Positions 29,680 to 62,851 are shown, counted from the stretch's first letter. The stretch: 64,000 nt of DNA from an uncultured Bacteroidaceae bacterium (GCA_905234735.1 CAJOJA010000004.1:105022-169021), one strand, 5' to 3'. Made by a program: numbers and translations. Notes: generated by a model not told the origin, from the letters alone.

Positions 29680-29916
29680 CGCAAAAAAATCCATTCTACC
29701 GCATACTTGGCGTATTATTCTCCATCCACTTTCGTTTCATCCCCTGTTTTGAAACCTTCACGCAAGGCGTTGTGTAGGGATGAAAAATAGGCTCACTTGC
29801 GAGCTAATCACGTAGGTGGGCTGAGAAAAAGACAGAAAAAAGGGCGTTTCTTTGTCTGTTTTTATAATTATTCGTAACTTTACATGCGAAATACTTCTCA
29901 TCGAAATATACGTTAT

Positions 29917-31506
29917 ATGTACGACAGGGAACGAGGGCTGTATGTGGCCCATTGCGAGAACGGCCCGCTGAGCATCGTGGGCAAGATGGCCAACCGCCAT
30001 GGACTGGTGGCCGGGGCCACGGGTACGGGAAAGACGGTGACTCTGCAGGTGATTGCCGAGAGCTTCTGCCAGGCAGGCGTGCCCTGCTTCATGGCCGACA
30101 TGAAGGGCGACCTCTCGGGCATCAGTCAGGCGGGCCGCATGTCGGGCTTCATCGAGAAGCGTGCGCCCGAGTTTGGCATAGAGAATCCGGAGTTTCAGCC
30201 CTGTCCGGTACGCTTCTTCGACGTCTATGGTGAACAGGGCCACCCCATGCGCGCCACCGTCAGCCAGATGGGGCCGCAGCTGCTCAGCCGTCTGCTGGGA
30301 CTGAACGACACGCAGGACGGCGTCCTGAACATCACCTTCCGCATTGCCGACGAGCGCGGACTACTGCTGACGGACCTGAAGGACCTGCGCGCTATGCTCG
30401 ACTATGTGTCGAAGCACGCCAAGGAGTACACGACCCGCTACGGCAACGTCTCCGCAGCCTCGGTGGGGGCCATACAGCGCGCCTTGCTCGGACTGGAGAG
30501 CCAGGGGGCAGAGCGGTTCTTCGGTGAACCGTCGTTCGACGTCATGGACCTTCTGCAACAGGAGGACGGACGGGGCGTGATGAACGTGCTGGCTGCCGAC
30601 CGGCTGATGATGCAGCCCAAGCTGTACTCGACCTTCCTGCTCTGGCTCCTGAGCGACTTGTACTCGCGACTGCCCGAGGTGGGCGACCTGCCTCTGCCCA
30701 AGCTTATCTTCTTCTTCGACGAGGCCCACATGCTGTTCGAGGACACATCGAAGGCTCTGGTGGACAAGATAGAACAGGTCATCCGGCTCATCCGCTCGAA
30801 GGGCGTGGGCATCTACTTTGTGACGCAGAGCCCCACGGACATCCCTGAGAACATTCTGGGCCAGCTGGGCAACCGCGTGCAGCATGCCCTACGTGCCTAT
30901 ACCCCGAGGGATCAGAAGGCCGTCCGCACGGCAGCCGAGACGTTCCGCCCGAATCCTGCCTTCAAGACCGACGAGGCTATCATGAACCTGGAGACGGGCG
31001 AGGCGCTGGTATCGTTCCTCGATGAGAAGGGTGCTCCCAACATGGTGGAACGGGCGAAGATACTCTTCCCCCTGTCGCAAATCGGTGCCATCACCGACGG
31101 TCAGCGTCTGGACATCATCAAACAGTCGCGCATCTACGGCAAGTACGACACGGCGGTGGAGAACGTGAGCGCCTACGAACAATTGCAGCAGGAGGCCTCT
31201 CTCCCAGACTCCCCCGAGGGGGAGCAGCAGCCTGCCTCCCAAACTAAAAACTCCCTTCCCTCGGGGAGGGCAGGGGGTAGGAGTCGGAGTTCCCTCGTCT
31301 CGAAGGTGCTGAAGGCCATCTTCACGGCCGTTACGGGTACGCTGGCCACAGTGCTAGGCACTATGGTGAGCGATGCTGTTACGGGCAAAAAGACCAAGTC
31401 GCGCACCTCTACGAAAGGCCGCATAGCCAAGAATGCCACCTCGGCAGCTACACGCACCATCACGCGAGAACTGACGCGCGACATACTAGGTAACCTGACG
31501 AAATAA
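29917..31506 (+). CDS. HerA-like P-loop NTPase (DUF853, YjgR-like)
   Basis: MANRHGLVAGATGTGKTVTLQVIAESFCQAGVPCFMADMKGDLSGISQAG closely parallels E. coli YjgR. ATG 29917 preferred over 29884. Confidence 0.8.
   Translation: MYDRERGLYVAHCENGPLSIVGKMANRHGLVAGATGTGKTVTLQVIAESFCQAGVPCFMADMKGDLSGISQAGRMSGFIEKRAPEFGIENPEFQPCPVRFFDVYGEQGHPMRATVSQMGPQLLSRLLGLNDTQDGVLNITFRIADERGLLLTDLKDLRAMLDYVSKHAKEYTTRYGNVSAASVGAIQRALLGLESQGAERFFGEPSFDVMDLLQQEDGRGVMNVLAADRLMMQPKLYSTFLLWLLSDLYSRLPEVGDLPLPKLIFFFDEAHMLFEDTSKALVDKIEQVIRLIRSKGVGIYFVTQSPTDIPENILGQLGNRVQHALRAYTPRDQKAVRTAAETFRPNPAFKTDEAIMNLETGEALVSFLDEKGAPNMVERAKILFPLSQIGAITDGQRLDIIKQSRIYGKYDTAVENVSAYEQLQQEASLPDSPEGEQQPASQTKNSLPSGRAGGRSRSSLVSKVLKAIFTAVTGTLATVLGTMVSDAVTGKKTKSRTSTKGRIAKNATSAATRTITRELTRDILGNLTK
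31205..31277. repeat. two GC-rich palindromes inside the yjgR-like C-terminal linker
   Basis: ctcccccgagggggag (31209-31224) and ccctcggggaggg (31258-31270). Together they encode PDSPEGEQ...SLPSGRAGGRS. Confidence 0.7.
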
Positions 31507-31538
31507 AAAAAGGGGAGTCCACGTGGGCTCCCCTTTTG
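31504..31538. terminator. bidirectional intrinsic terminator between the yjgR-like and nuclease genes
   Basis: A run, ggggagtcc-acgt-gggctcccc, then T run. Confidence 0.8.
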
Positions 31539-31540
31539 GT

Positions 31541-32539
31541 TCATTGTAGCTTCCAGACGGTGGTGGAGTAGCTGGCCTCCACCGTGCGCTCGATGTCGTC
31601 GGGCAGGTTGCAGAAGAAGTCCAGACCCGTCAGGTCTTCCAGTTCGTCGATGCTCCTGGCGTATGCCTTGTAGTTGGCATCGTTGTTGTCCTTGTGCTCC
31701 ATCCAGAATCCCACGGCAGCGTAACCGCCATTGACTTGGATGTCGTTGCGCTTGCGCAGCAGCGCCATGAAGAAGTACTTGGGCACGGGCAGGCGCTTGG
31801 CGGTGGTGGTGTACTCGCCCTGGCGGATGGTTCCCCCCTTCACGACGTAGAGCGTGTCGCGAAAGGCGTTGGTGTTGTACTGGCTGCGGATGAGCAGGTT
31901 CTCGATGTTCCACCAGATACCCTGCGTGTTGAAGTTGTAGAGCTGGGGCTGCATGTTGCTGTAGTAGAACGTCTGTTCGTTGGCCTGCCGCGAGTACACG
32001 CGGTCCTCGCTGGCCATGATGTGTCCACGGGTGTATCCGGTGCCACTGTAGTCGGACTGGTCGGTCTGGTATTCCTGCGGAATCAGGGGGTCGGGCAACC
32101 AGGCATCGGTGCGGCTCACGCTCTTGCTCGAGTTGGTGCGGTCCCAGCGGTAGGCCGACCACCATTGGGAGCGCAGGGTGCAGTTGTATTCCATTGCGTA
32201 GTTGATGCCGTAGGTGGGCACCGTGTGCACGATGAAGAGATTCTGCTCGCCTCCCTTCAGTCTGGGGATTTCCAGTCGACAGGCAGCCTGCTGCAGGTCG
32301 GTGGTGCCCTCCGTCACGGCCCTGACGGAACCGCAGTTCACGATGCGCCCGTTGCTGTTGGTTACGGGCGTGGTTCCCACAACCTGTGCATTGCCGTTCT
32401 GGTTAGTGCTGTAGGAGGTGGGGGGGATGTACTCGTCGTCGTTGTTACATCCCGTAAAAACAAACATCAGCCCCAGAATGAGGCTGATGTTCGTTGTCTT
32501 GGTGCATAGCCACCGTAGGTTACTTGCGAGAGCGTGCAT
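31541..32539 (-). CDS. DNA/RNA non-specific endonuclease (Serratia NucA family), lipoprotein
   Basis: Lipobox [12 protein letters not shown]. Catalytic pattern [13 protein letters not shown]...SNMQPQ...[12 protein letters not shown] (RGH...N..PQ...W..E). Confidence 0.8.
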
Positions 32540-32771
32540 AGCGGCTCATGAACTTATCTACGCGACCTGCGGTGTCGACGAGCTTCGACTTGCCCGTGTA
32601 GAAGGGGTGAGAGGTGCTGGAGATTTCCAGTTTCACAAGGGGATAGGTTTCGCCTTCGAACTCGATGGTCTCGCTGGTCTTACAGGTGGAGCGACTAAGG
32701 AACATATCGCCGTTCGACATGTCCTTGAAGACTACGGGGCGATAGTTTTCGGGATGAAGATCCTTTTTCAT
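32520..32771 (-). CDS. rpmE2: 50S ribosomal protein L31, type B (no CxxC zinc motif)
   Basis: [29 protein letters not shown]...HPFYTGK. ATG at 32771. Confidence 0.9.
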
Positions 32772-32865
32772 TTTCGTATTGTTTTTATTGTTTCTGTTTT
32801 CTTTTTCTCGGGTCGAATAGAGTTGGTAACACGGCACAAAGCCCACTATTCGGCATTACGGAGTG

Positions 32866-32873
32866 CAAAATTA
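32866..32873 (-). promoter_or_regulatory. candidate -7 box TAATTTTG upstream of rpmE2
   Basis: The reverse complement of caaaatta, within a duplicated agtgcaaa motif. About 95 nt before ATG 32771. Confidence 0.35.
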
Positions 32874-32949
32874 GTGCAAATCCAGCGAATAACCAAATTT
32901 ATTTGAGTTTTTTTAAGCAAAAGGGTATAAACGAGGGCTAAACGAGGTG

Positions 32950-33201
32950 TTATTTCTTGTTTTGTCTTTTCAACCAGTTGATAAAGTCCTTGCGTGTGAG
33001 TCCTAACGTGCGCAGATTGTTTTTGACAATAAATTCCGGAACGGGAGTTATGTGTGTTTACAGAATCACGGGATGCAGTCATCCCTCTTTCGTCCATTTT
33101 TCATGGCCTCCATCACTGCATTCCACTTCGCGACAGCCTATGTCGGATAGGAACTGACGAAATTCTATCAGGGAAATGTTGTTCAGACTGTAGGTGTTCA
33201 T
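32950..33201 (-). pseudogene. hicA: HicA-family toxin gene with two in-frame stop codons
   Basis: A single frame reads MNTYSLNNISLIEFRQFLSDIGCREVECSDGGHEKWTKEG*LHPVIL*THITPVPEFIVKNNLRTLGLTRKDFINWLKRQNKK*. TGA at 33079-33081 and TAA at 33058-33060. The start overlaps the upstream stop (ATGA). Confidence 0.65.
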
Positions 33202-33557
33202 GCGAATGCCGGGCAACGTGTGTTCACGTTAATTTTGGAAAACTCGGGCATGGAGACGACTTTCTGCATCTGAGCATTACCCGATAGCCGTTCGTCGAAC
33301 CTGGGCTCCGTGCCCCGTCGTGGACCAACCTTCCACCCGTGCCGTGTCAAATCCTCGTGCAGCGTATTCTGTTCCATTTGACTACGCAGATATTCGGACA
33401 GCATATATTCAAAATCCTGACGCGCCTTGCTCTCCGTCGTGTCATAGCCTGAAAGGTCAAGCGATGGGCAATAGGCAATAAAGACGTCATTCTCTTTGAA
33501 CACATAAACGGATACGGATATGCTGATTCCTTCTTTGTTGAATGAGATGGTGTTCAT
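33198..33557 (-). CDS. hicB: HicB-like antitoxin (UPF0150-type N-terminal domain)
   Basis: 119 aa. VYVFKENDVFIAYCPSLDLSGYDTTESKARQDFEYML fits the HicB N-domain pattern. It is translationally coupled to the hicA remnant. Confidence 0.55.
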   Translation of the reverse strand: MNTISFNKEGISISVSVYVFKENDVFIAYCPSLDLSGYDTTESKARQDFEYMLSEYLRSQMEQNTLHEDLTRHGWKVGPRRGTEPRFDERLSGNAQMQKVVSMPEFSKINVNTRCPAFA

Positions 33558-33635
33558 GTCAGAATATGCTTTATCAGGCAGTAAAGTTAGTGATCATTTC
33601 TGATTTCTCAAAAACCTAAGATTCTTTTTTAATGT

Positions 33636-33670
33636 AAAAGCCCGCGAAGTGTGGTGCTTCGCGGGCTTTT
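33636..33670 (-). terminator. terminator after the barrel-lipoprotein operon
   Basis: 14-bp stem aaaagcccgcgaag / cttcgcgggctttt with a 7-nt loop, 21 nt past the stop at 33691. Confidence 0.75.
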
Positions 33671-33690
33671 ATATATGTTTATGCGTGTTT

Positions 33691-35853
33691 TTATTCAGCG
33701 TAGGTGATGGTGATGCTTTGGATGCGGATGTGTCCACCATTGCCTGTGTAGGAAGCTACAACCTCTGTGGCGCTTCCGCTCCAGGTTTGTGCCTCATAGT
33801 CGAATGTGCCAGGAGTGAAGCTGGTGTTGCTGCTGGTTGCGTAGAATGGACGGTTATTCTGGTCTTCGCCTTTGTCAAACGTAAATGCAACCTTGCTAAT
33901 GGTCTTGCTGGAACTGATGGTCAGCGTATTGCCACCATACAAGCGCATACCCGTTCCTGTGTTATAGTACTTAGGAGTAGTGCTGCCACTTCCTTTCGAG
34001 AAGGTGAGTGTGGCATCGCCTACGGTAATGCTCTTGTCGTTGAAGTCCTGAGCATTCTCGTAGCCCTGAGCCGAGAAGGTGATGCTGTTGCCGGAAACTT
34101 CGGGCGTATCACCGCCATCGCCGCCATTACCGCCGTCACCGTCCTCAAGGATTTCTACGGTAGCATTCTTTATTTCGGGCGTTACCTTACCATCCTTGAC
34201 GTACTTCGTAAGTTTACCGGTAATCTTCACCTTTGCGCCAGCCTTAAATTCGCTGATGCCCTCGGGCACGTTGGCATAGTAGGCTTCGAATACCTTGCCG
34301 CCATCCTTGGTGTCGGCCATCCAGAAGGTCTGCTGAGGTGTACCCGTCTTAGTGCTTACGCTGCCCACAACCTCTGTGATATAACCCGTAACGCTGTACA
34401 CCTCTTCGGAGGTGCTGCCGTCGGTCAGTGCGTTGGTCAGTTCAACGGCTTTGGCGCAGGTGATTTCTGTGCCCGTAGGCTGTGGGTCGGGGGTATCGCC
34501 GCCGTCATCAAGTATTTCTACGGTAGGATTCTTGATTTCGGGCGTTACCTTACCATCCTTGACGTACTTCGTAAGTTTACCGGTAATCTTCACCTTTGCG
34601 CCAGCCTTAAATTCGCTGATGCCCGAGGGCACGTTGGCATAGTAGGCTTCGAATACCTTGCCGCCATCCTTGGTGTCGGCCATCCAGAAGGTCTGCTGAG
34701 GCGTACCCGTCTTAGTGCTTACGCTGCCCACAACCTCTGTGATATAACCCGTAATGCTGTACACCTCTTCGGAGGTGCCGCCGTCGGTCAGTGCATTGGT
34801 CAGTTCAACGGCTTTGGCGCAGGTGATTTCTGTGCCCGTAGGCTGTGGGTCGGGAGTGTCACCACCTGCCTCCAGAATTTCAACTTCGGCATTCTTTATT
34901 TCTGCTGTAACCTTACCGTCCTTGACGTACTTCGTAAGCTTACCGGTAATCTTCACCTTTGCGCCAGCCTTAAATTCGCTAACACCCTCGGGCAAGTTAG
35001 CATAGTATGCCTCGAATACCTTGCCGCCATCCTTGCTGTCGGCCATCCAGAAGGTCTGCTGGTTATTGCTTACACTACCCACTACTTGCGTGATGTAACC
35101 CGTAACACTGTAAACTTCTGTTGACGTAGCACCATCAGCCAGAGCGTTGGTCAGCGTTACAGCCTCAGCGCAGGTAACTTCAGTACCAGCGGGTGTAGGT
35201 GTATCACCGCCATTCTCTGCGGGAGTACCCGCTACCACCTTCAGATCCTTAACCTCGAAAGTCGCGGACTTGGTGTCGTTGGGTGTGGTGAAATAGAAGG
35301 CGATGTTCACGTTCTCCTTGTTCAGGAACTCAGCAGGCAGGGCTACCGTAGTGGTTGCCAGTTCCCAGTTCGTGGATGTATGGGTAGCCTTCCAGTCGAG
35401 CTGTGTCCACTTCTCTGCTACGAATCCCTCAGCAGGGTCGTATTGCGAAGAGGCATAGAGCTTGATGTGGTCAGCGAATTGAGCATCGTTGTTGGCGTAG
35501 GCCACACAGTACTGGAAACTGATGTAAGCATCGGTGCTGTCCGTAACGGTACCGAAAGCTGGGGAGATGAGATAACCATCAGCCATGCGGTTGCTCTTGG
35601 CATCGGCACCATCCCACTTCTGGTAACCAGTGGCCTGCGTGTAGCTGCCTCCCTGGCTCCAAGGATCGTTACCAGAGGCTGCTGCCAGCGTTGTGAAGTC
35701 GGAGCAACTGGTGCTGGAATAGAAGGTTGATGTTGTTGGAGTGTTGTTACCACCACCATTTGGAATGGGATAGGGTGCAGGCACGTCCTCGCAGCTCGAC
35801 AGGGCGAATACGCCTGCGAGTGCGAACATAAGTGATTTCCAAAACTTTTTCAT
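33691..35853 (-). CDS. surface lipoprotein: choice-of-anchor-J-like N-domain, 3 x ~120-aa OB-fold-like repeats, and a C-terminal beta-rich domain
   Basis: Lipobox FALSSC. N-domain ...YLISPAF...ISFQY...KLYASSQYD...WTQL. The repeats are TE(I/V)TCA.AV.LTNAL.DG.TS.EVYS.TGYIT.VVGSV...QTFWMAD.KDGGKVFEAYYAN.P.G.SEFKAGAKVKITGKLTKYVKDGKVT.EIKN. Confidence 0.6.
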   Translation of the reverse strand: MKKFWKSLMFALAGVFALSSCEDVPAPYPIPNGGGNNTPTTSTFYSSTSCSDFTTLAAASGNDPWSQGGSYTQATGYQKWDGADAKSNRMADGYLISPAFGTVTDSTDAYISFQYCVAYANNDAQFADHIKLYASSQYDPAEGFVAEKWTQLDWKATHTSTNWELATTTVALPAEFLNKENVNIAFYFTTPNDTKSATFEVKDLKVVAGTPAENGGDTPTPAGTEVTCAEAVTLTNALADGATSTEVYSVTGYITQVVGSVSNNQQTFWMADSKDGGKVFEAYYANLPEGVSEFKAGAKVKITGKLTKYVKDGKVTAEIKNAEVEILEAGGDTPDPQPTGTEITCAKAVELTNALTDGGTSEEVYSITGYITEVVGSVSTKTGTPQQTFWMADTKDGGKVFEAYYANVPSGISEFKAGAKVKITGKLTKYVKDGKVTPEIKNPTVEILDDGGDTPDPQPTGTEITCAKAVELTNALTDGSTSEEVYSVTGYITEVVGSVSTKTGTPQQTFWMADTKDGGKVFEAYYANVPEGISEFKAGAKVKITGKLTKYVKDGKVTPEIKNATVEILEDGDGGNGGDGGDTPEVSGNSITFSAQGYENAQDFNDKSITVGDATLTFSKGSGSTTPKYYNTGTGMRLYGGNTLTISSSKTISKVAFTFDKGEDQNNRPFYATSSNTSFTPGTFDYEAQTWSGSATEVVASYTGNGGHIRIQSITITYAE
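34108..35208. repeat. coding tandem repeat, 3 units (about 354, 363 and 363 bp)
   Basis: Units lie at about 34834-35187, 34471-34833 and 34108-34470. The anchor gggcgttacc recurs at 34177 and 34540 (363-bp period). The two distal units are near-identical. Confidence 0.9.
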
Positions 35854-35875
35854 AGTTGTATTATGTTTTTATTTA

Positions 35876-35912
35876 CTTTCTCATTTTCTCATTCTCTCAA
35901 TTTCTCATTCTC
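35876..35912. repeat. F1 micro-repeat between the two lipoprotein genes
   Basis: ctttctcattttctcattctctcaatttctcattctcc. It contains the stop of the 282-aa gene. Confidence 0.8.
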
Positions 35913-36753
35913 CAATCACTTCGATGTCCTTGAAGTCGCGGATAAGGAGTTCCCACTTGGGACTGTATTTGGTATTGGTCTGATATACCTTCCAGATGCC
36001 TGTAATGTTCATCTTGCCTGTTGGGATGGGGGTGTTGGCAAAGTCAGCGTATGTGCTGGTGTAGAGCATGATGTCGCTGCTCATGTCCACGAAGTACTTC
36101 TGCACGTTGGTGTATGTGCCAGCATCGGCTTGCGAGGCCCACGTCACCTTGCCGTCAGCTCCCTGTACACTGACGTTACGGATGGTCATCAGCTTGCCAG
36201 CATCCTCCATGGTGGGGTTTGCGGGGAAGTCGATGGGAACCACCTTCGAGGGGTCGGCCTTGCCCACGAGTTTCACGTGCTCTCTCCAGATGCTGTGGTT
36301 CATGCGGCTGGGGAAGGTGTTACCGGCTGCGTTGGTGTAGGGCGTGCCCAGCTGGGGCTGTGCACCGTAGCATCCGAAGTAGAGGCCCTTGAGGTTGATG
36401 AGCAGTTCCTGTCCGACAGGCATCCTGGCATAGAGGTCGCTGGCTGCGATGCAGACGATGAGTGCGTTGCCTTGCTCGTCCTGTACGGCTATGCTATTGT
36501 AGATATTACCCTGCACGTCGTTGCCCGTGACGCGGACACGCAGTTGTACGTCGTCGGTTATCTCCACGCAGCTGAAGGTGTTATTGTATTTGGGGTACAT
36601 GGCCTTGAGCTGTGCGATAGTGATGACGTTGGTCTCGGTCAGGCTATTGTTGCCGTAGGGAACCCCTTCGGAGAAGTCGGGGGCCGCCCAGTCACCGTCC
36701 TGACAGGCGGCACTGAGCACACAGAGCAGACAGAGTCCAAAGAGATATTTCAT
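35905..36753 (-). CDS. lipoprotein with DUF5689 / YhcR-type OB-fold-like domain
   Basis: MKYLFGLCLLCVLSAAC lipobox (ATG 36753). TIAQLKAMY...VRVTGNDVQGNIYNSIAVQDEQGNALIV...PVGQELLINLKGLYFGCYGAQPQLG. Confidence 0.55.
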   Translation of the reverse strand: MKYLFGLCLLCVLSAACQDGDWAAPDFSEGVPYGNNSLTETNVITIAQLKAMYPKYNNTFSCVEITDDVQLRVRVTGNDVQGNIYNSIAVQDEQGNALIVCIAASDLYARMPVGQELLINLKGLYFGCYGAQPQLGTPYTNAAGNTFPSRMNHSIWREHVKLVGKADPSKVVPIDFPANPTMEDAGKLMTIRNVSVQGADGKVTWASQADAGTYTNVQKYFVDMSSDIMLYTSTYADFANTPIPTGKMNITGIWKVYQTNTKYSPKWELLIRDFKDIEVIGE

Positions 36754-36770
36754 ATAGTTTCTCATAGTTG

Positions 36771-36810
36771 TATCAATTATCATTTATCAATTGTCCATTA
36801 TCCATTGTTC
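36771..36810. repeat. F2 micro-repeat between the barrel gene stop and the lipoprotein start
   Basis: tatcaattatcatttatcaattgtccattatccattgttc. Confidence 0.8.
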
Positions 36811-36811
36811 T

Positions 36812-39496
36812 TTAGAACTTATAGTTGAGGTTGAGCATGAAGTTGATGCCCTGTGCGTAGAACTTCTTGGGATTCTTCTGGAAGTTATAGGTACGGTTCT
36901 GCTCTGCGCCCTCCACTGTGGTGTAGTTGGTAGAGCGGCTCTGCTCGTAACCACCGGTGCACAGTTTGCGGTTGTTGGTGATGTTGGTCACCATGAGGTT
37001 TATGTTCAGGGGATGGCGGCCGCGGATGCGGAAGGTGTGGCCGATGGAGCCGTCGAGCATGAATCCGCCCTTGCCCTTGGATTGTGCAAAGTAGTCGCGA
37101 CCGGCACTCGTCAGCATGGCCTCGCCTTCAGCGTTGTAGCCACCCAACTGATAGTTTTCGTTCAGCTCTCCGGCACCCGTCTGCTTCAGTACATAGTCGG
37201 CTACGCCCGAATGGTATTCGTTGGAGTTGGGGTCACCCATGACGGAGTAGCGCATGTTGGGTGAGTAGGAAAGGTAGATGCGGTCGTAGTAGTTGGCGTT
37301 CAGATTGAAGTACCATCCCTTGATGCTGTACTTCAGGCCTAGGCTGATGGCTGCCAGCGGGGTACCGCTCTCGCGCATGTCTTTGTTCAGACAGAGTGCC
37401 GAGCGCTCAATACCTTCGTTGGAAAGCATGTAAACGGCTCGGGTGTCCTTGGCATACTTAGCTTCGGCAAACGAACCCAGGAGGTTGATGTTGAAGTTGC
37501 TGGTGACCTTGAACTTCATGCCCAGTTCTACGCCGTAGTAGTCCTTCTCGACGCCGAACAGGCTGTTGTAGGTGAAGGAGTTCTCGTTGTCGTTGTAGAA
37601 CTGTTGCCACTCGGTGCCGTCGTACGAGTGAGTGTAGTAGGCCGTCAGGTTCATCTGCAGCCACTTGCAGTTCAGGGCATAGCCCAGTTCGCTGGAGAAT
37701 ATCTTCTCGTTTACCAGGTTGCCGACGAAGTTGTTGTTCATTTCGGGGCTGACGAAGGCAACGTTGGCCTGCGGGGCACGTGTCTCGTAGCCGATACCCA
37801 GGGAGATGGCATTGCCACGACCCAGATTCAGGTTGGTGCCCATCTTGAAGCCGCCGTCCAGGAAACGGGCCTTACCGCTCTTGCCGTATGAAAGCTTTAC
37901 CTCCTGACCGTTGGCATCCAGGTAGTTGGCAAAGATACCATTGTTCATCTTGCCGTCGCGCCACATCTGCGAACCGCCTACCTTTGCAGAGATGAAGTTG
38001 TGGCTGATGCCTTTATCCTTAGTCCATGTGGCCCACAACTTGGCGTTCTGTACCATCAGGTTGTAGTCGTAACGGAAACGGTCGCCCACCCGGACGAGTC
38101 CGTCCTTGTTGTTCAGGTCATAGTAGATTTGGTCGGCACCGTCGGCATACGAGCCTTCGGCGTAGGTATTGCGGTTGTGGAAGTATTCGGAGCCCAACAG
38201 GTCGTCCATCGTCTCGTAGTGCATGCCCTTGTTCGTGCCCAACTGTATGCCGCTCTGGAACTTCGAGTCCTTCGATACGTTCCAGTCTAAGGTGGAACTG
38301 AGGGCAAAGTTCAGGTGGTCGTTGTGGCGACGCTCGATGTAGTAGATGGCATCGTGGCCTGTGGCGTTAAGCTGCTGATTGGCGAAATAGAGCATGTCGA
38401 AGTCTATCTGGCGATAGGCCGTCGTACCCGTCCACGAGTTGTAGGCATTCTGCCAGGCCGTCATCTCATCGGCTGTAGGAGGCGTGTCGCCCCATACATT
38501 ATAATTATAAGAGGGGAATCGCTTCCAATAGTCGGGGTGGGGATTTGTGCCCGAGTAGTTGAGCTTGCTGGAGCTGTACATCGCATACTTTCCGATGAGG
38601 CTGGTGGTCAGCTTCATGCGTTCGTTGATTTTGTAGTCCCATGTCAGCAGTGCCGTGGGCTCGTAGTTGTTCACCACGCGACTGGCACGCTTCTTGCCGC
38701 CCTGATAGCCCCAGTAGGGATTGTACTGGTAGTCGTTAGCCAGCCAGTAGGCCTCATCGGTGGAGGCACCCTGCTGGGCACGCTCCGTGGGGTTGCCCCA
38801 TGTGGCCAGGTTCAGCGAGTGGCGGTCGCCCCACATCTTCTGTATGCTGAGGAAGTAGGAGAGTGAGTTGTAGAACGTTCCCTCTACGGCTGCCGTCTGC
38901 AAACTGGCCCAACGGTAGCCGACGGTGCCGGCGACGGCCCATCCGCGTTTCGTCACGCCGCTGCCGAAGGTGTACATGGCGCGCATGGTGTAGTTGCGGT
39001 TGGCACCGCTGAGCGTCACCTTATGTCCTGAGGGCAGGGATGAGGCACGGAAGTTGTAGTTCGACGAACCGCCGATGTTGGCCATCGAGAATGCATTCGA
39101 CTCGAAGACACCCGAAGCATCGATGTTGCGCGTGGCATCGTTCATGCCGCCGATGGTGCTGTAGTTGAACTGTCCGTTCTCGGCATTGTTCACCTGGACA
39201 CCATTGAAGTAGATGTCATTGTAGCGCGAGTTGTAGGCGCGGTACTTGTAGCGGGCGGGGCTGAACAGGTAGCCCACGTTGCTGGTGTAGACGTTGTTGC
39301 TGGAGTTCACCATGATGACGTTCTGAGTGACGTCGTCGTTCTCGCCCAGCTGCGACTCGGTGAAGACGAATGCCGCGTTGTCCTGTCGCAGCGAGACATC
39401 GTCGGTGGTGCCCGTGTCGTTCGTTTCCTTGTTCTGGGCGTAGCCAAGTGACGCAATTCCAAGGAATAGGGTCACAAACGTTAGCTTCTTTGTCAT
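36812..39496 (-). CDS. TonB-dependent-receptor-type outer-membrane beta-barrel (not SusC-like)
   Basis: 894 aa. Signal peptide, plug-like YRAYNSRYNDIYFNGVQVNNAENGQFNYSTIGGMND region, long alternating beta-strand body, C-terminal ...INFMLNLNYKF aromatic terminus. Confidence 0.7.
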   Translation of the reverse strand: MTKKLTFVTLFLGIASLGYAQNKETNDTGTTDDVSLRQDNAAFVFTESQLGENDDVTQNVIMVNSSNNVYTSNVGYLFSPARYKYRAYNSRYNDIYFNGVQVNNAENGQFNYSTIGGMNDATRNIDASGVFESNAFSMANIGGSSNYNFRASSLPSGHKVTLSGANRNYTMRAMYTFGSGVTKRGWAVAGTVGYRWASLQTAAVEGTFYNSLSYFLSIQKMWGDRHSLNLATWGNPTERAQQGASTDEAYWLANDYQYNPYWGYQGGKKRASRVVNNYEPTALLTWDYKINERMKLTTSLIGKYAMYSSSKLNYSGTNPHPDYWKRFPSYNYNVWGDTPPTADEMTAWQNAYNSWTGTTAYRQIDFDMLYFANQQLNATGHDAIYYIERRHNDHLNFALSSTLDWNVSKDSKFQSGIQLGTNKGMHYETMDDLLGSEYFHNRNTYAEGSYADGADQIYYDLNNKDGLVRVGDRFRYDYNLMVQNAKLWATWTKDKGISHNFISAKVGGSQMWRDGKMNNGIFANYLDANGQEVKLSYGKSGKARFLDGGFKMGTNLNLGRGNAISLGIGYETRAPQANVAFVSPEMNNNFVGNLVNEKIFSSELGYALNCKWLQMNLTAYYTHSYDGTEWQQFYNDNENSFTYNSLFGVEKDYYGVELGMKFKVTSNFNINLLGSFAEAKYAKDTRAVYMLSNEGIERSALCLNKDMRESGTPLAAISLGLKYSIKGWYFNLNANYYDRIYLSYSPNMRYSVMGDPNSNEYHSGVADYVLKQTGAGELNENYQLGGYNAEGEAMLTSAGRDYFAQSKGKGGFMLDGSIGHTFRIRGRHPLNINLMVTNITNNRKLCTGGYEQSRSTNYTTVEGAEQNRTYNFQKNPKKFYAQGINFMLNLNYKF

Positions 39497-39542
39497 AGGT
39501 TAATATATTTGTTTAATGTTCGTTCTTAAGGCTCTACGGCTA

Positions 39543-39550
39543 CAAAGTTA
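39543..39550 (-). promoter_or_regulatory. candidate -7 box TAACTTTG upstream of the barrel-lipoprotein operon
   Basis: The reverse complement of caaagtta. 47 nt before ATG 39496. Confidence 0.45.
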
Positions 39551-39667
39551 AGAAAAAAACCGCCATTCGCCCCATGTTTCTGCATTTTTTGAAAAAAAAA
39601 GTTAATGTGGCAACAAAAATGTTTCGCTTTTTTTCGGCATATCTGTCTTGGGTATCATTTTTTTTTG

Positions 39668-39675
39668 TATCTTTG
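39668..39675 (+). promoter_or_regulatory. candidate -7 box TATCTTTG upstream of the EEP nuclease gene
   Basis: Matches TAnnTTTG. 30 nt before ATG 39705. Divergent from the barrel promoter. Confidence 0.45.
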
Positions 39676-39704
39676 TCGACGAATAATACATAAAGTATAT
39701 AGAT

Positions 39705-40751
39705 ATGTGTATGCGTAAGAACATGTTTTCCTTGTTGCTGGTCTTTCTGACCACAACAGCGTGCACTGCACAAAAGAAGTACGGGCTCTACCCCGTGGCC
39801 TTCTACAATCTTGAGAATATCTTTGACACCCAACACGATGAGGGCAAGAACGACTATGAATTCCTGCCTACGGGTTCGTATCATTGGGACGAGAACAAGT
39901 ACACCAACAAGTTGCAGAACATGTCTCGCGCCCTGGCCGACATCGGCACCGACAAGGTGCCTGCCGGAGCGGCCGTCATCGGTGTCAGCGAGGTGGAGAA
40001 CGCACATGTCCTGGACGATCTGACGGCTCAGCCCGCACTGAAGAATCGCGGCATACGCTACATCCACATCGAGGGACCCGACAAGCGTGGCGTGGACTGC
40101 GCCCTGTTATACAATCCCCGTATGTTTACGCCCAAGAAATGGTTCCTGCAGCCCTATGTCTACGAGAACGGTGACACCACACGTGCTACTCGTGGTTTCC
40201 TGACCGTACAGGGCGAGATGGCCGGCGAACCGCTCACTGTCATCGTTTGCCACTGGCCCAGCCGCGGTGCCACTGGCTACTTCCGTGACATTGCCGGCAA
40301 GCAGGTGCGCCACCTGACGGACAGCATCCTCGTGGCCGACAGCAACCAGCGCATCATTGTCATGGGCGACATGAACGACGACCCCGACAACGACTCTATG
40401 GCCAAGTTTCTTGGAGCTAAACGCAAGATGAAGGAGGTGGGCAAGTCTGACTTCTTCAACCCCTGGTGGGAGGTGCTGAGAGGTCAGGGACAAGGCACAC
40501 TGACCTATCAGGGCGGATGGAACCTGTTCGACCAAATCGTCTTCTCGCGCAGCCTGCTCGACGTGAAGGAGCGTAAGGAGTACAGCCACTTGACACTCTA
40601 TGCCTGGCACATCTTCCGTCGCGACTACCTCATCCAGCAGGAAGGTAAGTATAAGGGTTCGCCCAAGCGCACCACCGCCGGCGGTACGTGGCTCAACGGC
40701 TACAGCGATCACCTGCCCACGGTGTCGTATTTGATAAAAGAGATGAAATAA
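39705..40751 (+). CDS. endonuclease/exonuclease/phosphatase (EEP) family secreted nuclease-like protein
   Basis: Signal peptide/lipobox-like LVFLTTTAC. YPVAFYNLENIFD, ...GVSEVEN..., ...GDMNDDP..., SDHLPV. Confidence 0.7.
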   Translation: MCMRKNMFSLLLVFLTTTACTAQKKYGLYPVAFYNLENIFDTQHDEGKNDYEFLPTGSYHWDENKYTNKLQNMSRALADIGTDKVPAGAAVIGVSEVENAHVLDDLTAQPALKNRGIRYIHIEGPDKRGVDCALLYNPRMFTPKKWFLQPYVYENGDTTRATRGFLTVQGEMAGEPLTVIVCHWPSRGATGYFRDIAGKQVRHLTDSILVADSNQRIIVMGDMNDDPDNDSMAKFLGAKRKMKEVGKSDFFNPWWEVLRGQGQGTLTYQGGWNLFDQIVFSRSLLDVKERKEYSHLTLYAWHIFRRDYLIQQEGKYKGSPKRTTAGGTWLNGYSDHLPTVSYLIKEMK

Positions 40752-44048: not shown

Positions 44049-44588
44049 ATGAACAAAACTATCCAAGTTAAGGACAAAACTTTCGCTGTTTCCATTCCCG
44101 AGGAACGGATAATGGCTGAGGTGCGGCGTGTGGCCGCTGAGATTAATCGCGACTATGCCGGCCAAAACCCCATCTTCCTGGCCGTACTGAACGGTTCGTT
44201 CATCTTCGCTGCCGACCTTCTGCGTGAGGTGACGCTGCCTTGCGAGATTTCGTTTGTGCGCCTGGCCTCGTACGAGGGTATGGGTTCGACAGGTGAAATC
44301 CGCGAAATCATGGGACTGAGTGTCGACGTGACGGGGCGCCCCGTTATCATCGTGGAGGACATCGTGGACACAGGCCTCACCATGGCCCACATGCTCGAAA
44401 CGCTGAAACGCCACAATCCTGGCAGCATCGACATCTGTACGCTGCTCCTGAAGCCTGGAAAGTTGCAGGTGAACCTGGACATCCGCTACTGCGCCATGCA
44501 GATTCCGAATGACTTCATCGTGGGCTATGGCCTCGACTACGACGGCTTCGGTCGGAATACGAAGGACATTTATACCCTATGTAGTTAA
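44049..44588 (+). CDS. hpt: hypoxanthine phosphoribosyltransferase
   Basis: ...VIIVEDIVDTGLT PRPP motif. ...FIVGYGLDYDG. Confidence 0.9.
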   Translation: MNKTIQVKDKTFAVSIPEERIMAEVRRVAAEINRDYAGQNPIFLAVLNGSFIFAADLLREVTLPCEISFVRLASYEGMGSTGEIREIMGLSVDVTGRPVIIVEDIVDTGLTMAHMLETLKRHNPGSIDICTLLLKPGKLQVNLDIRYCAMQIPNDFIVGYGLDYDGFGRNTKDIYTLCS

Positions 44589-44620: not shown

Positions 44621-45193
44621 ATGAAGAACATTATTATCTTTGGTGCACCGGGCAGTGGCAAGGGCACGTATAGCGACGAGATTGTAAGCCGCTATGGCAT
44701 GGGACACATTTCTACGGGTGACGTGTTGCGCGCCGAAATCAAGAACGACACAGAACTGGGCAAGACGGCCAAGGGCTACATCGACAACGGACAGTTGATT
44801 CCCGACGAGCTGATGATTGACATCCTGGCTAAGACCTACGATAGCTTGCCTGCCGGCAAGGGTGTTATCTTCGACGGTTTCCCTCGCACCATAGCTCAGG
44901 CTGAGGCCCTGAAGAAAATGTTGGCTGAGCGCCATCACGACATGGGTGTAATGATAGAGCTGATTGTCGACGAACAGACGCTGATGGAGCGCCTGTTGCG
45001 CCGTGCCGAGATAGAAGGCCGTGCCGATGACAATGCGGAGACCATCAAGAAACGCTTCGCCGTGTACCACAGCCAGACCGAGCCGCTTGCAGCATGGTTC
45101 GAGAAGGAAGGCATCCGCCACACCTTCACCTGGGAGGGCAGCAAGGACCAGATGTTGGCCAACATCTTTGCCTTCCTCGATACGTTGAAGTGA
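44621..45193 (+). CDS. adk: adenylate kinase (short-lid type)
   Basis: MKNIIIFGAPGSGKGT...GFPRT. Confidence 0.9.
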   Translation: MKNIIIFGAPGSGKGTYSDEIVSRYGMGHISTGDVLRAEIKNDTELGKTAKGYIDNGQLIPDELMIDILAKTYDSLPAGKGVIFDGFPRTIAQAEALKKMLAERHHDMGVMIELIVDEQTLMERLLRRAEIEGRADDNAETIKKRFAVYHSQTEPLAAWFEKEGIRHTFTWEGSKDQMLANIFAFLDTLK

Positions 45194-46615: not shown

Positions 46616-47797
46616 TTAATGATGGAATAGGCGTACGCCGGTGAAGGTCATGGTAATGCCGTATTTGTCGCAGGTCTCGATGACGTGGTCGTCGCGCACA
46701 GAGCCACCGGCCTGGGCCACGTAGCGCACACCGCTCTTGTGGGCACGTTCGATGTTGTCGCCGAAGGGGAAGAAGGCATCGCTACCCAGGCATACGTCGG
46801 TGTTTTGGGCCAGCCATTCGCGCTTCTCGGTTTCCGACAACGGTTCGGGCCGCTGGGTGAAGAACTTCTGCCACTCGCCCTCGCGCAGCACGTCGTCGAA
46901 CTCGGGACCGATGTAGACGTCGATGGTGTTGTCGCGGTCGGCGCGGCGTATGCCTGGTACGAAGGGTAGGGCCATCACCCGCGGGTGCTGGCGTAGCCAC
47001 CATGTGTCGGCCTTCTGTCCGGCCAGGCGGGTGCAGTGGATGCGGCTCTGTTGTCCGGCGCCGATGCCTATGGCCTGTCCATCCTTGACGTAGCAGACAC
47101 TGTTGGACTGGGTGTACTTCAGCGTGATGAGGGCGATGATGAGGTCGCGACGGGCCTCGGGGGTGAACGTCTTGTTCTGGGTAGGAATATTCTCGAAGAG
47201 AGCGGGGTCGGCCAGGTCAATCTCGTTGCGCCCCTGTTCGAAGGTGATGCCGAAGACCTGCTTGCGCTCGATGGGGGCAGGACGATAGTCGGGGTCAATC
47301 TGGATGACGCAATAGGTGCCCTTGCGTTTCTGGCGGAGCACTTCCAGTGCCTCGGGGGTATAGTCGGGGGCAATGATGCCGTCCGAGACTTCGCGGTTGA
47401 TGAGACGTGCCGTCGACTCGTCGCAGGTGTCGCTTAGGGCGATGAAATCACCGTAGCTGGACATGCGGTCGGCTCCTCGGGCCCGGGCGTAGGCCGAGGC
47501 TATTGGGGTGAGGGGCAGGGGAGCGTCGTCGACGAAGTAAATCTTCCGGAGAGTGTCGCTCAGGGGCAGGCCTACGGCTGCTCCGGCTGGGCTGACGTGT
47601 TTGAATGAGGCAGCGGCGGGCAGACCCGTGGCAGCTTTCAGTTCCTTCACCAACTGCCACGAGTTCAGGGCATCGAGCAGGTTGATGTAGCCGGGACGGC
47701 CGTTCAGTACAGCGATTGGCAATTCGCCCTCCTCCATGAAGATGCGCGAGGGCTTCTGGTTCGGGTTACACCCGTACTTGAGTTGGAGTTCCTTCAT
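46616..47797 (-). CDS. AICARFT/IMPCHase-family protein lacking the N-terminal MGS domain (short PurH-like)
   Basis: MKELQLKYGCNPNQKP...SFKHVSPAGAA...GGSVRD. Confidence 0.7.
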   Translation of the reverse strand: MKELQLKYGCNPNQKPSRIFMEEGELPIAVLNGRPGYINLLDALNSWQLVKELKAATGLPAAASFKHVSPAGAAVGLPLSDTLRKIYFVDDAPLPLTPIASAYARARGADRMSSYGDFIALSDTCDESTARLINREVSDGIIAPDYTPEALEVLRQKRKGTYCVIQIDPDYRPAPIERKQVFGITFEQGRNEIDLADPALFENIPTQNKTFTPEARRDLIIALITLKYTQSNSVCYVKDGQAIGIGAGQQSRIHCTRLAGQKADTWWLRQHPRVMALPFVPGIRRADRDNTIDVYIGPEFDDVLREGEWQKFFTQRPEPLSETEKREWLAQNTDVCLGSDAFFPFGDNIERAHKSGVRYVAQAGGSVRDDHVIETCDKYGITMTFTGVRLFHH

Positions 47798-48551: not shown

Positions 48552-48656
48552 ATTATTGCGATTTTGGAGTTATTATAGTGATAATATATAATAAAGTAAG
48601 AACTGTGCAAACGTAACATACGAGTGGAATCAGAGGAACAAAAATACGAGGACGGG

Positions 48657-49250
48657 ATGAACGTGCTGGGGCGTGCCGTCAAACGCTGGTTTGATGTCGT
48701 CGTTTCGCTGTGTGGGCTGATAGCCCTGTCACCCGCCTTCCTGTACATCTATCTGCGTCTTCGACGTCAGACCGACGATACCGTCATCTTCCGACAGGAG
48801 CGCATCGGTATGGGTGGCCGTCCCTTTAACATCCTGAAGTTCCGCACGATGAACTTCGATCCGGAGCCCGATGGTGTTCCACAATTAGCGGAGAAGAGCG
48901 ACCAGCGGCTAACCCCCTTCTGCCGCTATCTTCGCGAGCATCATTTGGACGAGTTGCCTCAGTTGTGGAACGTCCTGGTGGGCGATATGTCGTTTGTCGG
49001 TCCCAGACCCGAACGCCAATACTTCATCCGGCAGATTATGCAGGAAAACCCTGACTACCAGTACCTCTACCGCATCCGGCCAGGCGTGACCAGCATGGCC
49101 ACGATATACAACGGCTATACTGATACCTTGGAGAAGATGCTCATCCGACTGCAGATGGACCTGGAGTACCTGCAGCACCGCAGCTTGTGGCTCGACCTGC
49201 GCATCATGCTCACCACCGTTCGACTAATAGGATATGGAAAGAAAATTTAA
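48657..49250 (+). CDS. monotopic phosphoglycosyl transferase (bacterial sugar transferase, WbaP C-terminal type)
   Basis: ...FRQERIGMGGRPFNILKFRTM...DELPQLWNVLVGDMSFVGPRPE. ATG 48657 preferred over GTG 48624. Confidence 0.8.
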   Translation: MNVLGRAVKRWFDVVVSLCGLIALSPAFLYIYLRLRRQTDDTVIFRQERIGMGGRPFNILKFRTMNFDPEPDGVPQLAEKSDQRLTPFCRYLREHHLDELPQLWNVLVGDMSFVGPRPERQYFIRQIMQENPDYQYLYRIRPGVTSMATIYNGYTDTLEKMLIRLQMDLEYLQHRSLWLDLRIMLTTVRLIGYGKKI

Positions 49251-49254
49251 CGAT

Positions 49255-51804: not shown

Positions 51805-51822
51805 TAGGAAAAGTGGCAAATC

Positions 51823-52863
51823 ATGGAACAGCAGATTATAGACGTAAAGAAGGTCGCTCGTACCGTATGGGTTAAGAGAAAACTCTTTGTAAAGGTTTGG
51901 GCTTGTACTTTCGTCCTGGCATGTATCTGGATTCTTCCCCAGCCTCGTTTCTACGATTGCGAAGTGAAATTGGCCCCAGAGATGTCGGGGGAGGATGTTG
52001 GCGGACTCTCCTCGATAGCCTCCTCATTTGGCTTCAATATTGGAGGTATTGGCGGGCAGGATGCCATCTATCCTGAACTCTATCCCGACCTGTTTGAAAG
52101 CCCTGAGTTCATCGTAGGACTTTTCGGCATTGAGGTATCAACTCGCAAGGGAGACCTTACAACGAACTACTTCAAGTACATGAAGTACCACCAGAAGCAG
52201 AATTTTCTGATCTTGCCCTTCTATAGGGCTCGGAAGGCCATCAAGGAATATTTTGAAGGGGAGGATGAAGTTCCGCAGGGAGTTGGAAAGGGCGATATCA
52301 GTCCCTTCCTGATGAACAAGAAGGATTTCGAACTTATGAAGGTTGTGATGGACAATATCGGTTGTGCAGTGGACCGTAAGACCAGTGTCATAACTATCAG
52401 CGTGAAGGACCAGGATCCCCTAATCTGTGCTACGATGGCCGACAGCGTAAAAATGCACCTGCAGGACTTCATCATCCGTTATCGCACCAGCAAGATTACC
52501 GAGGATTTGGCACACTATCAGCAGATGCGTGACAGTGCTGAGCATGAATACGACCTTGCAATGGCAGCCTACAGTCGCTACTGCGATGCCCATAAAAACG
52601 TTATTATGCAGAGTTATCAGGGGGAGCGCGACAAGTTGGAGGCCGATTTAGCACTCAAGCAAAATGCGCTCACCGCTATGGAGACTCAGTTGCAGGCCAC
52701 AAAGGTGAAGTTGCAACAGAAGACACCAGCATTCACTACTCTGAAGAGTGCTATCGTTCCAGTAAAGCCTGCAGGCCCGAAGCGTATGCTCTTTGTCGCC
52801 GGTATGATGATATTGGCCACGCTTGCCACATCTGGCTACATCTTACGTAAAGAATCGAATTAA
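51823..52863 (+). CDS. chain-length determinant (Wzz-like) protein
   Basis: N- and C-terminal TM helices flank a coiled-coil periplasmic region. It occupies the expected position after the exporter. Confidence 0.65.
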   Translation: MEQQIIDVKKVARTVWVKRKLFVKVWACTFVLACIWILPQPRFYDCEVKLAPEMSGEDVGGLSSIASSFGFNIGGIGGQDAIYPELYPDLFESPEFIVGLFGIEVSTRKGDLTTNYFKYMKYHQKQNFLILPFYRARKAIKEYFEGEDEVPQGVGKGDISPFLMNKKDFELMKVVMDNIGCAVDRKTSVITISVKDQDPLICATMADSVKMHLQDFIIRYRTSKITEDLAHYQQMRDSAEHEYDLAMAAYSRYCDAHKNVIMQSYQGERDKLEADLALKQNALTAMETQLQATKVKLQQKTPAFTTLKSAIVPVKPAGPKRMLFVAGMMILATLATSGYILRKESN

Positions 52864-52874
52864 TATGTTCCTGA

Positions 52875-55186: not shown

Positions 55187-55201
55187 ACACCCATAGGTTA
55201 T

Positions 55202-57675: not shown

Positions 57676-57680
57676 GGTTT

Positions 57681-58865: not shown

Positions 58866-58877
58866 AAGGACATCGTG

Positions 58878-59990: not shown

Positions 59991-59996
59991 AACTCT

Positions 59997-62303: not shown

Positions 62304-62394
62304 AGTTATTTCGTTATATCTTTATTTTATTAACGAATTTTCACAGATTTTATTGCTGTAAGAACAGGGTTTCTCTGAAATAATTCAATGGAGG

Positions 62395-62820: not shown

Positions 62821-62851
62821 TATCTCATTATCTCAATTTCTCATTTTCTCC
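62815..62851. repeat. F1 micro-repeat between the lipocalin-like start and the barrel-gene stop
   Basis: cttcattatctcattatctcaatttctcattttctcc, nearly the same string as at 28141. Confidence 0.8.

Follow-up and report, generated by a model that had tools for sequence, protein, structure and literature searches.

A probable ddb-type DNA-utilization locus with a predicted tandem OB-fold lipoprotein in an uncultured Prevotellaceae bacterium

The locus described here lies in a 64,000-nucleotide stretch of DNA from an uncultured Prevotellaceae bacterium (GCA_905234735.1, CAJOJA010000004.1:105022-169021; the whole stretch is called the window below) and comprises the genes of an outer-membrane barrel, two lipoproteins and two nucleases. 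It is best read against the ddbABCDEF DNA-utilization locus of Bacteroides thetaiotaomicron (Sharan et al., bioRxiv March 2025; PNAS September 2025, PMC12478041). In that system, DdbA and DdbF, both with signal peptidase II (SPII) signals, and DdbB, with a signal peptidase I (SPI) signal, are three active nucleases; DdbC is a TonB-dependent transporter, DdbD is a DUF5689 protein modelled as the lid of DdbC and resembling the p202 HIN domain, and DdbE is an SPII protein of unknown function. Deletion of ddb abolished DNA depletion as well as uracil and xanthine production, both in culture and in mice. The analogy to Sus was stated outright by the same authors, who divided the systems into four subtypes (Bt1, Bt2, Pv1 and Pv2) by DdbC identity of >50% at >75% coverage (PMC12478041). 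The operon BT3560-3563, which is included in the ddb locus and whose synteny is conserved in Prevotella and Alloprevotella, had been described before, and its BT3563 degrades extracellular DNA (eDNA) and so promotes bile-dependent biofilm formation (Bechon et al., PNAS 2022, PMC8851478). In Riemerella anatipestifer, RA0C_RS04915 and RA0C_RS04920 are essential for natural transformation (Huang et al., 2021, PMC8459023); the ddb paper regards this system and ddb as homologous, a ddbB-like nuclease also being adjacent in Riemerella (PMC12478041). Finally, Prevotella intermedia NucA (EEP family, 357 aa) and NucD (Endonuclease_NS family, 361 aa), two Mg/Ca-dependent DNases, degrade neutrophil extracellular traps (NETs; Doke et al. 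2017, PMC5516193).

After comparison with these systems, the locus in the window is probably a ddb-type locus of an uncultured Prevotellaceae bacterium, serving to capture, cut, import and digest DNA. The original prediction for this stretch had proposed a Sus-like TonB importer working with surface nucleic-acid-binding lipoproteins and nucleases, and domain, fold and comparative evidence now supports this proposal. Its statement that no such system had been characterised was wrong, since PMC12478041, PMC8851478 and PMC8459023 all describe a module of barrel, DUF5689 protein and nuclease. The type of system was described between 2021 and 2025, and the window carries a Prevotellaceae version of it with variant features, namely a barrel lacking CarboxypepD_reg, an EEP nuclease that looks periplasmic, and an undescribed tandem-OB lipoprotein in the position of DdbE. 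Domain identities, the fold of the transporter, the OB folds and the gene linkage come from the present analysis, while nuclease activity and the need of the locus for DNA depletion are carried over from homologous loci; what we infer is where each protein resides (read from signal-peptide motifs), that the lipoproteins bind DNA, that transport depends on TonB, and what the physiological purpose is. The parts of the locus are as follows.

36812-39496, minus strand: barrel gene, 894 aa (open reading frame list)
35905-36753, minus strand: DUF5689 lipoprotein gene, 282 aa when begun at the Met ahead of the lipobox (36753)
33691-35853, minus strand: 720-aa lipoprotein gene (open reading frame list)
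33632-33674, minus strand: intrinsic terminator of the three-gene operon, a stem-loop followed by a T run
39497-39704: divergent promoter region of 208 bp between the barrel and EEP genes
39705-40751, plus strand: EEP nuclease gene, divergent to the barrel operon
31541-32539, minus strand: Endonuclease_NS lipoprotein gene (open reading frame list)

Direct sequence searches with the barrel were empty: it hit zero Pfam families even at E<=10, and NCBIfam and PDB sequences returned nothing meaningful. Matches to PF07715 (Plug) and PF00593 (TonB_dep_Rec) were found only in its homologs, the former in P0145 (8e-9) and the Phocaeicola massiliensis barrel (8e-13), the latter in P0414. Its place among the TonB-dependent transporters is therefore drawn from Foldseek searches on the predicted structure and from these transitive homologs. 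An AlphaFold2 model built from 64 homologs (pLDDT, the predicted score on the local distance difference test, 78.8; predicted TM-score, pTM, 0.81) was searched against the PDB with Foldseek, where the top 50 hits were TonB-dependent transporters without exception (E 8e-25 to ~1e-18), PqqU (8e-25) being followed by Fiu, YncD, FecA, FhuA and BtuB, with alignments of ~830 columns that include the plug and target-normalised TM values of 0.57-0.72. The model supports a plug-plus-barrel TonB-dependent transporter of the DdbC-like kind, in agreement with the 894-aa outer-membrane barrel with a plug-like N-terminus that had been read from the sequence. Along the protein, an SPI signal is followed by a candidate TonB box (FxFTESQL, residues 43-50), the plug and the beta-barrel. 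Exhaustive search of representatives yielded 1598 relatives, most of the distant ones carrying an N-terminal CarboxypepD_reg domain which the window barrel and its nearest relatives lack. In its place, right before the plug, the N-terminal alignment of relatives revealed an invariant FxFTE(S/A)QL motif with the fixed positions F43-x-F45-x-E47-x-Q49-L50, lying in a low-pLDDT segment of the model; we propose this motif as the putative TonB box.

With proxies standing in for the named ddb proteins, the window barrel showed 32% identity (E 2e-128) to the Bacteroides finegoldii TonB-dependent receptor that precedes DUF5689 and EEP genes, and 24.5% to the Phocaeicola proxy from P. massiliensis. Judged from these alignments, it is very likely homologous to the DdbC family and, with just 32% and 24.5% against the >50% criterion, probably falls outside all four published ddb subtypes. 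A second barrel clade was formed by proteins of P. massiliensis (L087 8491-12838) and Persicobacter (L088 7512-10838), which are 41% identical to each other and 23-25% to the window barrel. Both have clear CarboxypepD_reg and Plug matches; the protein encoded next is a DUF5017 protein or a small lipoprotein, and no nuclease was found nearby on those contigs. This clade may be what the literature describes as the nuclease-poor "Pv" type. The abundant cluster of 43%-identical barrels (P0125) was considered as the P. vulgatus Pv1 type and rejected, as it belongs to Alloprevotella.

DUF5689, which the original prediction had named among the families to look for in this block, is the domain of the second gene: its 282-aa lipoprotein matches PF18942 at E 2.5e-59 (Pfam). 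The localisation of all proteins was judged by inspecting N-terminal motifs across orthologs. Here the lipobox Cys is followed by QDGDW, and orthologs keep a C-x-D-G-D-W-D/E N-terminus, which suggests a DdbD-like lipoprotein exposed at the surface. Conservation was followed in a Prevotellaceae set of 80 species-level genomes covering Prevotella, Segatella copri, Hallella, Paraprevotella and rumen metagenome-assembled genomes (MAGs); the closest relatives of the locus are rumen MAGs, and the scan of genome contigs gave Prevotellaceae relatives only. Every scorable locus of this set (79/79) has the DUF5689 gene directly after the barrel gene, the EEP gene stands divergently upstream of the barrel in all 74 loci with upstream sequence (74/74), and the third gene is of the OB type in 56. 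A mobile or phage origin of the locus was rejected because housekeeping synteny is kept across the 80 genomes.

The third gene encodes a 720-aa lipoprotein composed of the following domains.

35218-35736, minus strand: N-terminal jelly-roll domain, residues ~40-212, MAM / cleaved-adhesin-like according to Foldseek, without Pfam match
34858-35190, minus strand: predicted OB-fold repeat 1, residues 222-332, PF01336 at 17 bits, alone below threshold
34495-34839, minus strand: predicted OB-fold repeat 2, residues 339-453, PF01336 at 19 bits
34132-34476, minus strand: predicted OB-fold repeat 3, residues 460-574, from repeat analysis
33694-34095, minus strand: C-terminal domain, residues ~587-720, all beta, pLDDT >90, without Pfam match

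The three like-patterned repeats noticed earlier were recovered at both levels: three protein repeats of ~115 aa, and in the DNA a 363-bp unit in 2.5 copies at 92% identity (Tandem Repeats Finder) plus a more diverged first copy. Against PF01336 (OB-fold tRNA_anti-codon) the protein reached 36.8 bits (E 3.8e-9, cut-off 27), a score that is the sum over three repeats, each sub-threshold at 17-19 bits. The AlphaFold2 model has a pLDDT of 79.5 overall, with individual domains at high confidence, and the structure search for OB folds that the original prediction had called for retrieved the RPA70-single-stranded DNA (ssDNA) complex 4gop_C, POT1, Teb1, Cdc13 and the LysRS anticodon domain at probabilities of 0.89-1.00 (1.00 for all except Cdc13). 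By this modelling the repeats are RPA-like OB folds, and nucleic-acid binding is predicted for them. The same model also matched the ligand-binding domain of EphA2 (EphA2-LBD), the Kgp K1/K3 adhesin and MAM over 145-197 aligned columns, matches which we assign, by elimination and size, to the predicted N-terminal jelly-roll domain. The earlier label for that domain, choice-of-anchor-J-like, was dropped: no hidden Markov model (HMM) match to choice-of-anchor J or DUF5017 was found in the 720-aa protein (Pfam, NCBIfam), and its fold resembles instead MAM, cleaved adhesin and the ephrin-receptor ligand-binding domain. The C-terminal beta domain gave no HMM or other match.

More than 1700 relatives of this protein exist, unnamed and mostly with 3-4 repeats each, annotated as hypothetical or "carbohydrate binding" only; DUF6359, which is related to the OB lipoprotein family, found no mention in the literature searched. 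At the N-terminus (35791-35853, minus strand), the lipobox is followed by C-E-D-V-P-A-P-Y, which is invariant in orthologs and kept down to 27% identity, even where the remaining domains of the third gene differ completely (OB repeats, CBM_4_9-like, other). Such invariance beside a divergent remainder suggests a conserved tether, and CEDVPAPY may serve in surface export or in docking to the transporter. The OB repeats (34132-35190, minus strand) also show weak matches to DUF4131 (E 0.015-0.24), which are too weak to interpret; we take DUF4131 to be the N-terminal, OB-containing domain of ComEC, a competence protein.

These resemblances bear on a different function for the pair of barrel and DUF5689 protein, that of an outer-membrane uptake machine for natural transformation, which would take in long DNA for recombination while the OB lipoprotein captures the incoming strand. 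The homologous pair RA0C_RS04915/04920 is essential for transformation in Riemerella (PMC8459023), the ddb paper calls the systems homologous (PMC12478041), and the tandem OB folds resemble the ssDNA binders RPA70, POT1 and Teb1, with the uninterpretable DUF4131 matches pointing the same way. The Riemerella barrel is of the same family, distant homologs sharing its annotated name, and it too stands beside a DUF5689-containing protein and an adjacent ddbB-like nuclease. That barrel has CarboxypepD_reg, and its partner is a single protein with choice-of-anchor J, DUF5689 and DUF5017, while in the window the DUF5689 and jelly-roll/OB modules are spread over two proteins; the Riemerella pair serves transformation and not catabolism. 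Against a role in transformation here, transforming DNA would be destroyed by a surface endonuclease as well as by a periplasmic nuclease, competence genes are absent from the window, and long DNA would find no obvious channel in a TonB-dependent barrel that carries a plug. All in all, we consider a role in transformation unlikely.

Returning to the reading of a DNA-utilization locus, its two nucleases belong to known families. The divergent gene encodes an Exo_endo_phos_3 (PF19580) EEP nuclease (E 6.2e-91, Pfam), and the peptide motifs earlier reported for the two enzymes, FYNLENIFD, GDMNDDP and SDHLP as well as RGH...NMQPQ, and the other quoted peptide strings are all present in the translated open reading frames. 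In the EEP orthologs, the signal peptide ends in AxA followed by Q and has no conserved Cys, the Cys of the window protein not being conserved; with this SPI-type signal, the enzyme is most likely soluble and periplasmic, like DdbB. The second enzyme is an Endonuclease_NS lipoprotein of the Serratia/Anabaena NucA type (PF01223, E 4.8e-46, Pfam), whose lipobox Cys is followed by NNDDE, orthologs always having the lipobox Cys and acidic residues. The ddb paper applied C(x/xx)(D/E)(D/E) as a surface-export signal (PMC12478041), which CNNDDE fits, so that the protein would be surface-exported as an accessory part of the system. Of the "two secreted nucleases" originally announced, the surface-type signal of Endonuclease_NS bears one out, while the EEP enzyme, with its SPI signal, is probably periplasmic and not secreted.

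Among the 59 Prevotellaceae loci having at least 7 kb downstream, 46 carry Endonuclease_NS, nearly always beside rpmE, the gene of ribosomal protein L31. In the window, rpmE occupies 32520-32846 on the minus strand and overlaps the start of the Endonuclease_NS gene by 20 nt at its 3' end; as its Pfam match begins at residue 26, translation probably starts at 32771. In 45/50 related loci the two genes are neighbours, and TAnnTTTG boxes lie near rpmE at 32866-32873 and 32894-32901. From this arrangement, rpmE and the nuclease gene appear to form a separate transcription unit that has promoter-like boxes of its own. It is odd that a gene for a surface nuclease should, as it seems, share a transcript with one for a ribosomal protein.

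In another reading, remodelling of eDNA, be it biofilm-matrix DNA or NETs, would be the primary role and the transporter secondary. BT3563 of the homologous operon promotes bile-dependent biofilm by degrading eDNA (PMC8851478), and P. intermedia NucA and NucD degrade NETs (PMC5516193); they belong to the same two enzyme families as the window nucleases and are of similar size, a likeness at the level of family, and were presented as free-standing secreted enzymes encoded on separate replicons, no transporter context being mentioned. Yet it is the transporter and DUF5689 that form the invariant core, while the surface nuclease is dispensable (13/59 loci are without it), the EEP enzyme looks periplasmic, and NETs are irrelevant in the rumen, from which the MAGs of the closest relatives come. 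We hold remodelling as the primary role to be quite improbable, though it is compatible with DNA utilization and not exclusive of it.

The original prediction had proposed asking whether this barrel family recurs with nucleases across Bacteroidota. Linkage within Prevotellaceae alone cannot exclude plain synteny, because flanking housekeeping genes are shared as well; the decisive evidence comes from distant lineages, since their flanks are unrelated. There, barrel and nuclease recur together in Alloprevotella, Bacteroides, Alistipes, Paludibacter, Tenuifilaceae and two Cytophagales.

Alloprevotella: EEP beside barrel-DUF5689-553 aa-Endonuclease_NS
Bacteroides finegoldii: fimbrillin and Endonuclease_NS fusion, barrel, DUF5689, EEP
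Alistipes: Endonuclease_NS, EEP, barrel, DUF5689
Tenuifilaceae: EEP beside barrel-DUF5689-DUF5689
Paludibacter: Endonuclease_NS-barrel-DUF5689-DUF6359/OB-EEP
Aureibacter (Cytophagales): barrel, accompanied by DUF5689, EEP and endonuclease
Flammeovirga (Cytophagales): barrel, accompanied by EEP and endonuclease

In Alloprevotella, Alistipes and Paludibacter the Endonuclease_NS gene lies directly inside the operon. Judged by their predicted domains, three fusion proteins tie the parts of the system together: EEP with barrel (P0205, 1158 aa), DUF5689 with Endonuclease I in Flammeovirga (L086 13621-15816), and Mfa-like fimbrillin with Endonuclease_NS in B. finegoldii (L084 722-2317), the last annotated only as "fimbrillin family protein". 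Some of the records deserve a remark of their own. A complete Paraprevotella-like locus with Bacteroidota flanks was found in a MAG labelled "Clostridium sp." (L028, JAMPGY010000011.1), probably through a binning or labelling error. The PLSDB "plasmids" L084 (NZ_OY725948.1, 27 kb, B. finegoldii) and L087 (OY726028.1, 21 kb, P. massiliensis) carry chromosomal genes, and their proteins recur on contigs of up to 0.8-3 Mb, so that both are almost certainly misfiled chromosome fragments.

This linkage also speaks to the nature of the substrate. Phosphatases and sphingomyelinases belong to the EEP superfamily, some third-gene relatives have CBM_4_9 matches and are named "carbohydrate binding domain-containing protein", and OB folds can bind oligosaccharides; the substrate might then be, for example, a phosphorylated glycan or lipid, on which the EEP enzyme would act as phosphatase or phosphodiesterase, while the OB/jelly-roll lipoprotein would bind glycan. 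In most of the lineages examined, however, PF19580 is accompanied by Endonuclease_NS or Endonuclease I, it also occurs in fusions with them or with the barrel, homologous enzymes are proven DNases (PMC12478041, PMC5516193), and the block has no glycoside hydrolase or SusD gene. A substrate other than nucleic acid is accordingly hardly credible.

For DNA utilization, the parts would work together as follows. The surface-anchored Endonuclease_NS lipoprotein would cut extracellular DNA, and possibly RNA, to fragments; the DUF5689 protein, beside the barrel in the position of SusD, and the 720-aa protein with its three predicted RPA-like OB folds, in a SusE/F- or DdbE-like position, would both hold the nucleic acid at the transporter. 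The DdbC-family TonB-dependent transporter would carry the fragments through the outer membrane, and the putatively periplasmic EEP nuclease would digest them further, for uptake into nucleotide and nucleobase metabolism.

As in ddb, a TonB-dependent-type barrel is immediately followed by DUF5689 and then by an SPII lipoprotein of unknown function, in a Sus-like arrangement without SusD or glycoside hydrolases, and an SPI-type nuclease accompanies an SPII surface nuclease in both. Two marks of a ddb locus, DUF5689 directly downstream of the transporter and nucleases within the locus, are present here (PF18942 at 2.5e-59 after a 58-nt spacer; PF19580 adjacent and divergent, PF01223 1.1 kb downstream). 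Unlike ddb, the window locus has a barrel without CarboxypepD_reg, an EEP gene divergent upstream, a NucA-type gene behind rpmE and two nucleases instead of three. The position of DdbE is taken by a lipoprotein with three predicted OB folds, and the locus comes from an uncultured member of the rumen/gut Prevotellaceae, outside the subtype survey of the ddb paper. It is possible, though doubtful, that this is a distinct Prevotellaceae subtype whose transporter lost its N-terminal extension and whose array of 3-4 RPA-like OB folds captures ssDNA or RNA specifically.

Several points weigh against reading the locus as a DNA-utilization system. DNA was a poor sole source of C, N or P in the ddb work (PMC12478041), so that scavenging may not be the purpose, and our model is at its weakest where the physiological purpose is concerned. 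DNA binding by DUF5689 or DdbE proteins is without experimental demonstration even in the published system. The barrel itself has no Pfam match and lacks the CarboxypepD_reg common to most homologs; its nearest Bacteroides proxy, which is not the named DdbC itself, lies at 32% identity under the 50% cut-off of the ddb paper; and the TonB box is a candidate motif in a low-confidence region of the model. Finally, the NucA-type gene is apparently co-transcribed with rpmE and missing in 13/59 related loci.

Two further system types could be set apart from the locus. With polysaccharide utilization loci (PULs) of the SusC/SusD type it shares a surface hydrolase, surface-binding lipoproteins, a TonB-dependent importer and a periplasmic hydrolase, each in its predicted role, as well as a lipoprotein gene directly downstream of the barrel gene. 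In contrast to these PULs, it has DUF5689 and nucleases in the place of SusD (TPR-type, that is, tetratricopeptide-repeat) and glycoside hydrolases. No SusC or SusD HMM match was obtained for the five locus proteins (Pfam, NCBIfam), and the Pfam search of the block found neither SusD nor a glycoside hydrolase, just as originally stated; a SusC/SusD locus was rejected on the lack of these two. A GH31 gene lies outside the block, at 25.7-28.1 kb. Nucleases of the ExeM/NucH/YhcR kind join an OB-type nucleic-acid-binding module to a nuclease domain outside the cytoplasm. In the window the modules are separate polypeptides coupled to a transporter; the idea of a dismembered ExeM/YhcR enzyme stands as regards the separate modules, but as an analogy and not as a demonstrated homology, and an ExeM/NucH-family enzyme was rejected for want of an NCBIfam match and with the modules on separate genes.

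The layout read from the raw DNA was reproduced in the open reading frame list, with three co-directional genes at the given coordinates, spacers of 58 and 51 nt and a divergent spacer of 208 bp. The 58 nt between the barrel and DUF5689 genes hold when the latter starts at the Met ahead of the lipobox, giving 282 aa, its longest open reading frame being 35905-36783 (minus strand, 292 aa); the 51 nt separate the DUF5689 and 720-aa lipoprotein genes. The predicted terminator was likewise found behind the operon as a stem-loop with T run (33632-33674), and the Endonuclease_NS gene lies 1097 bp beyond it. Scored as matches to the Bacteroidota -7 consensus, TAACTTTG at 39543-39550 (minus strand), 46 nt 5' of the barrel start codon, corresponds to the box foreseen upstream of the operon, and TATCTTTG, a second TAnnTTTG box, lies at 39668-39675 (plus strand), 29 nt 5' of the EEP start codon; they are the putative promoter boxes of the operon and of the EEP gene, respectively. 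With 37 TAnnTTTG boxes in the window vs 22+/-5 by chance, the enrichment is mild, which makes a single box weak evidence and its position weightier than its presence. A sigma-70 promoter scan was uninformative (6 vs 6.3 expected).

Between the operon terminator and rpmE lies an open reading frame of 119 aa (33198-33557, minus strand) with no Pfam match at E<=1 and a counterpart in 0/80 related loci; perhaps inserted in this strain alone, it resembles by eye a HicB-like antitoxin. On the other side of the Endonuclease_NS gene, a HerA-like/DUF853 ATPase gene (29884-31506, plus strand; PF05872, 5e-207) converges on it, the two having a bidirectional terminator (31508-31537) in common; this adjacency occurs in 7/80 loci, the closest relatives only. 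Purine and nucleotide genes are found 3-7 kb from the locus, namely a phosphoribosyltransferase (44049-44588) and PurH (46616-47797), along with an adenylate-kinase-like open reading frame identified by eye only (44621-45193); the phosphoribosyltransferase and the adenylate-kinase-like gene are not kept beside the locus in distant lineages. Further on, 48600-64000 holds a capsule/exopolysaccharide-type cluster with Poly_export/SLBB and glycosyltransferase genes, whose drop in G+C (0.45-0.48 vs ~0.55 elsewhere) suggests horizontal acquisition.

As the barrel family lies outside every Pfam model, annotation pipelines and PUL predictors will overlook or mislabel such loci, and the label "carbohydrate binding" is misleading for the family of tandem-OB lipoproteins. 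Because no surface DNA-binding component has yet been demonstrated biochemically in these systems, the tandem-OB lipoprotein with its putative CEDVPAPY tether offers a concrete candidate that is easy to purify. Although Prevotellaceae are dominant in the rumen and in many human guts, the DNA-utilization system has been studied solely in Bacteroides and Phocaeicola; its four-gene core, a probably periplasmic EEP nuclease beside transporter, DUF5689 protein and variable lipoprotein, is universal across Prevotella, Segatella copri, Hallella, Paraprevotella and Alloprevotella. If the array of OB folds did capture ssDNA or RNA, the Prevotellaceae subtype would draw on a different nucleic-acid pool than the B. 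thetaiotaomicron system, or would form the outer-membrane step of an unrecognised natural competence in rumen and gut Prevotella.

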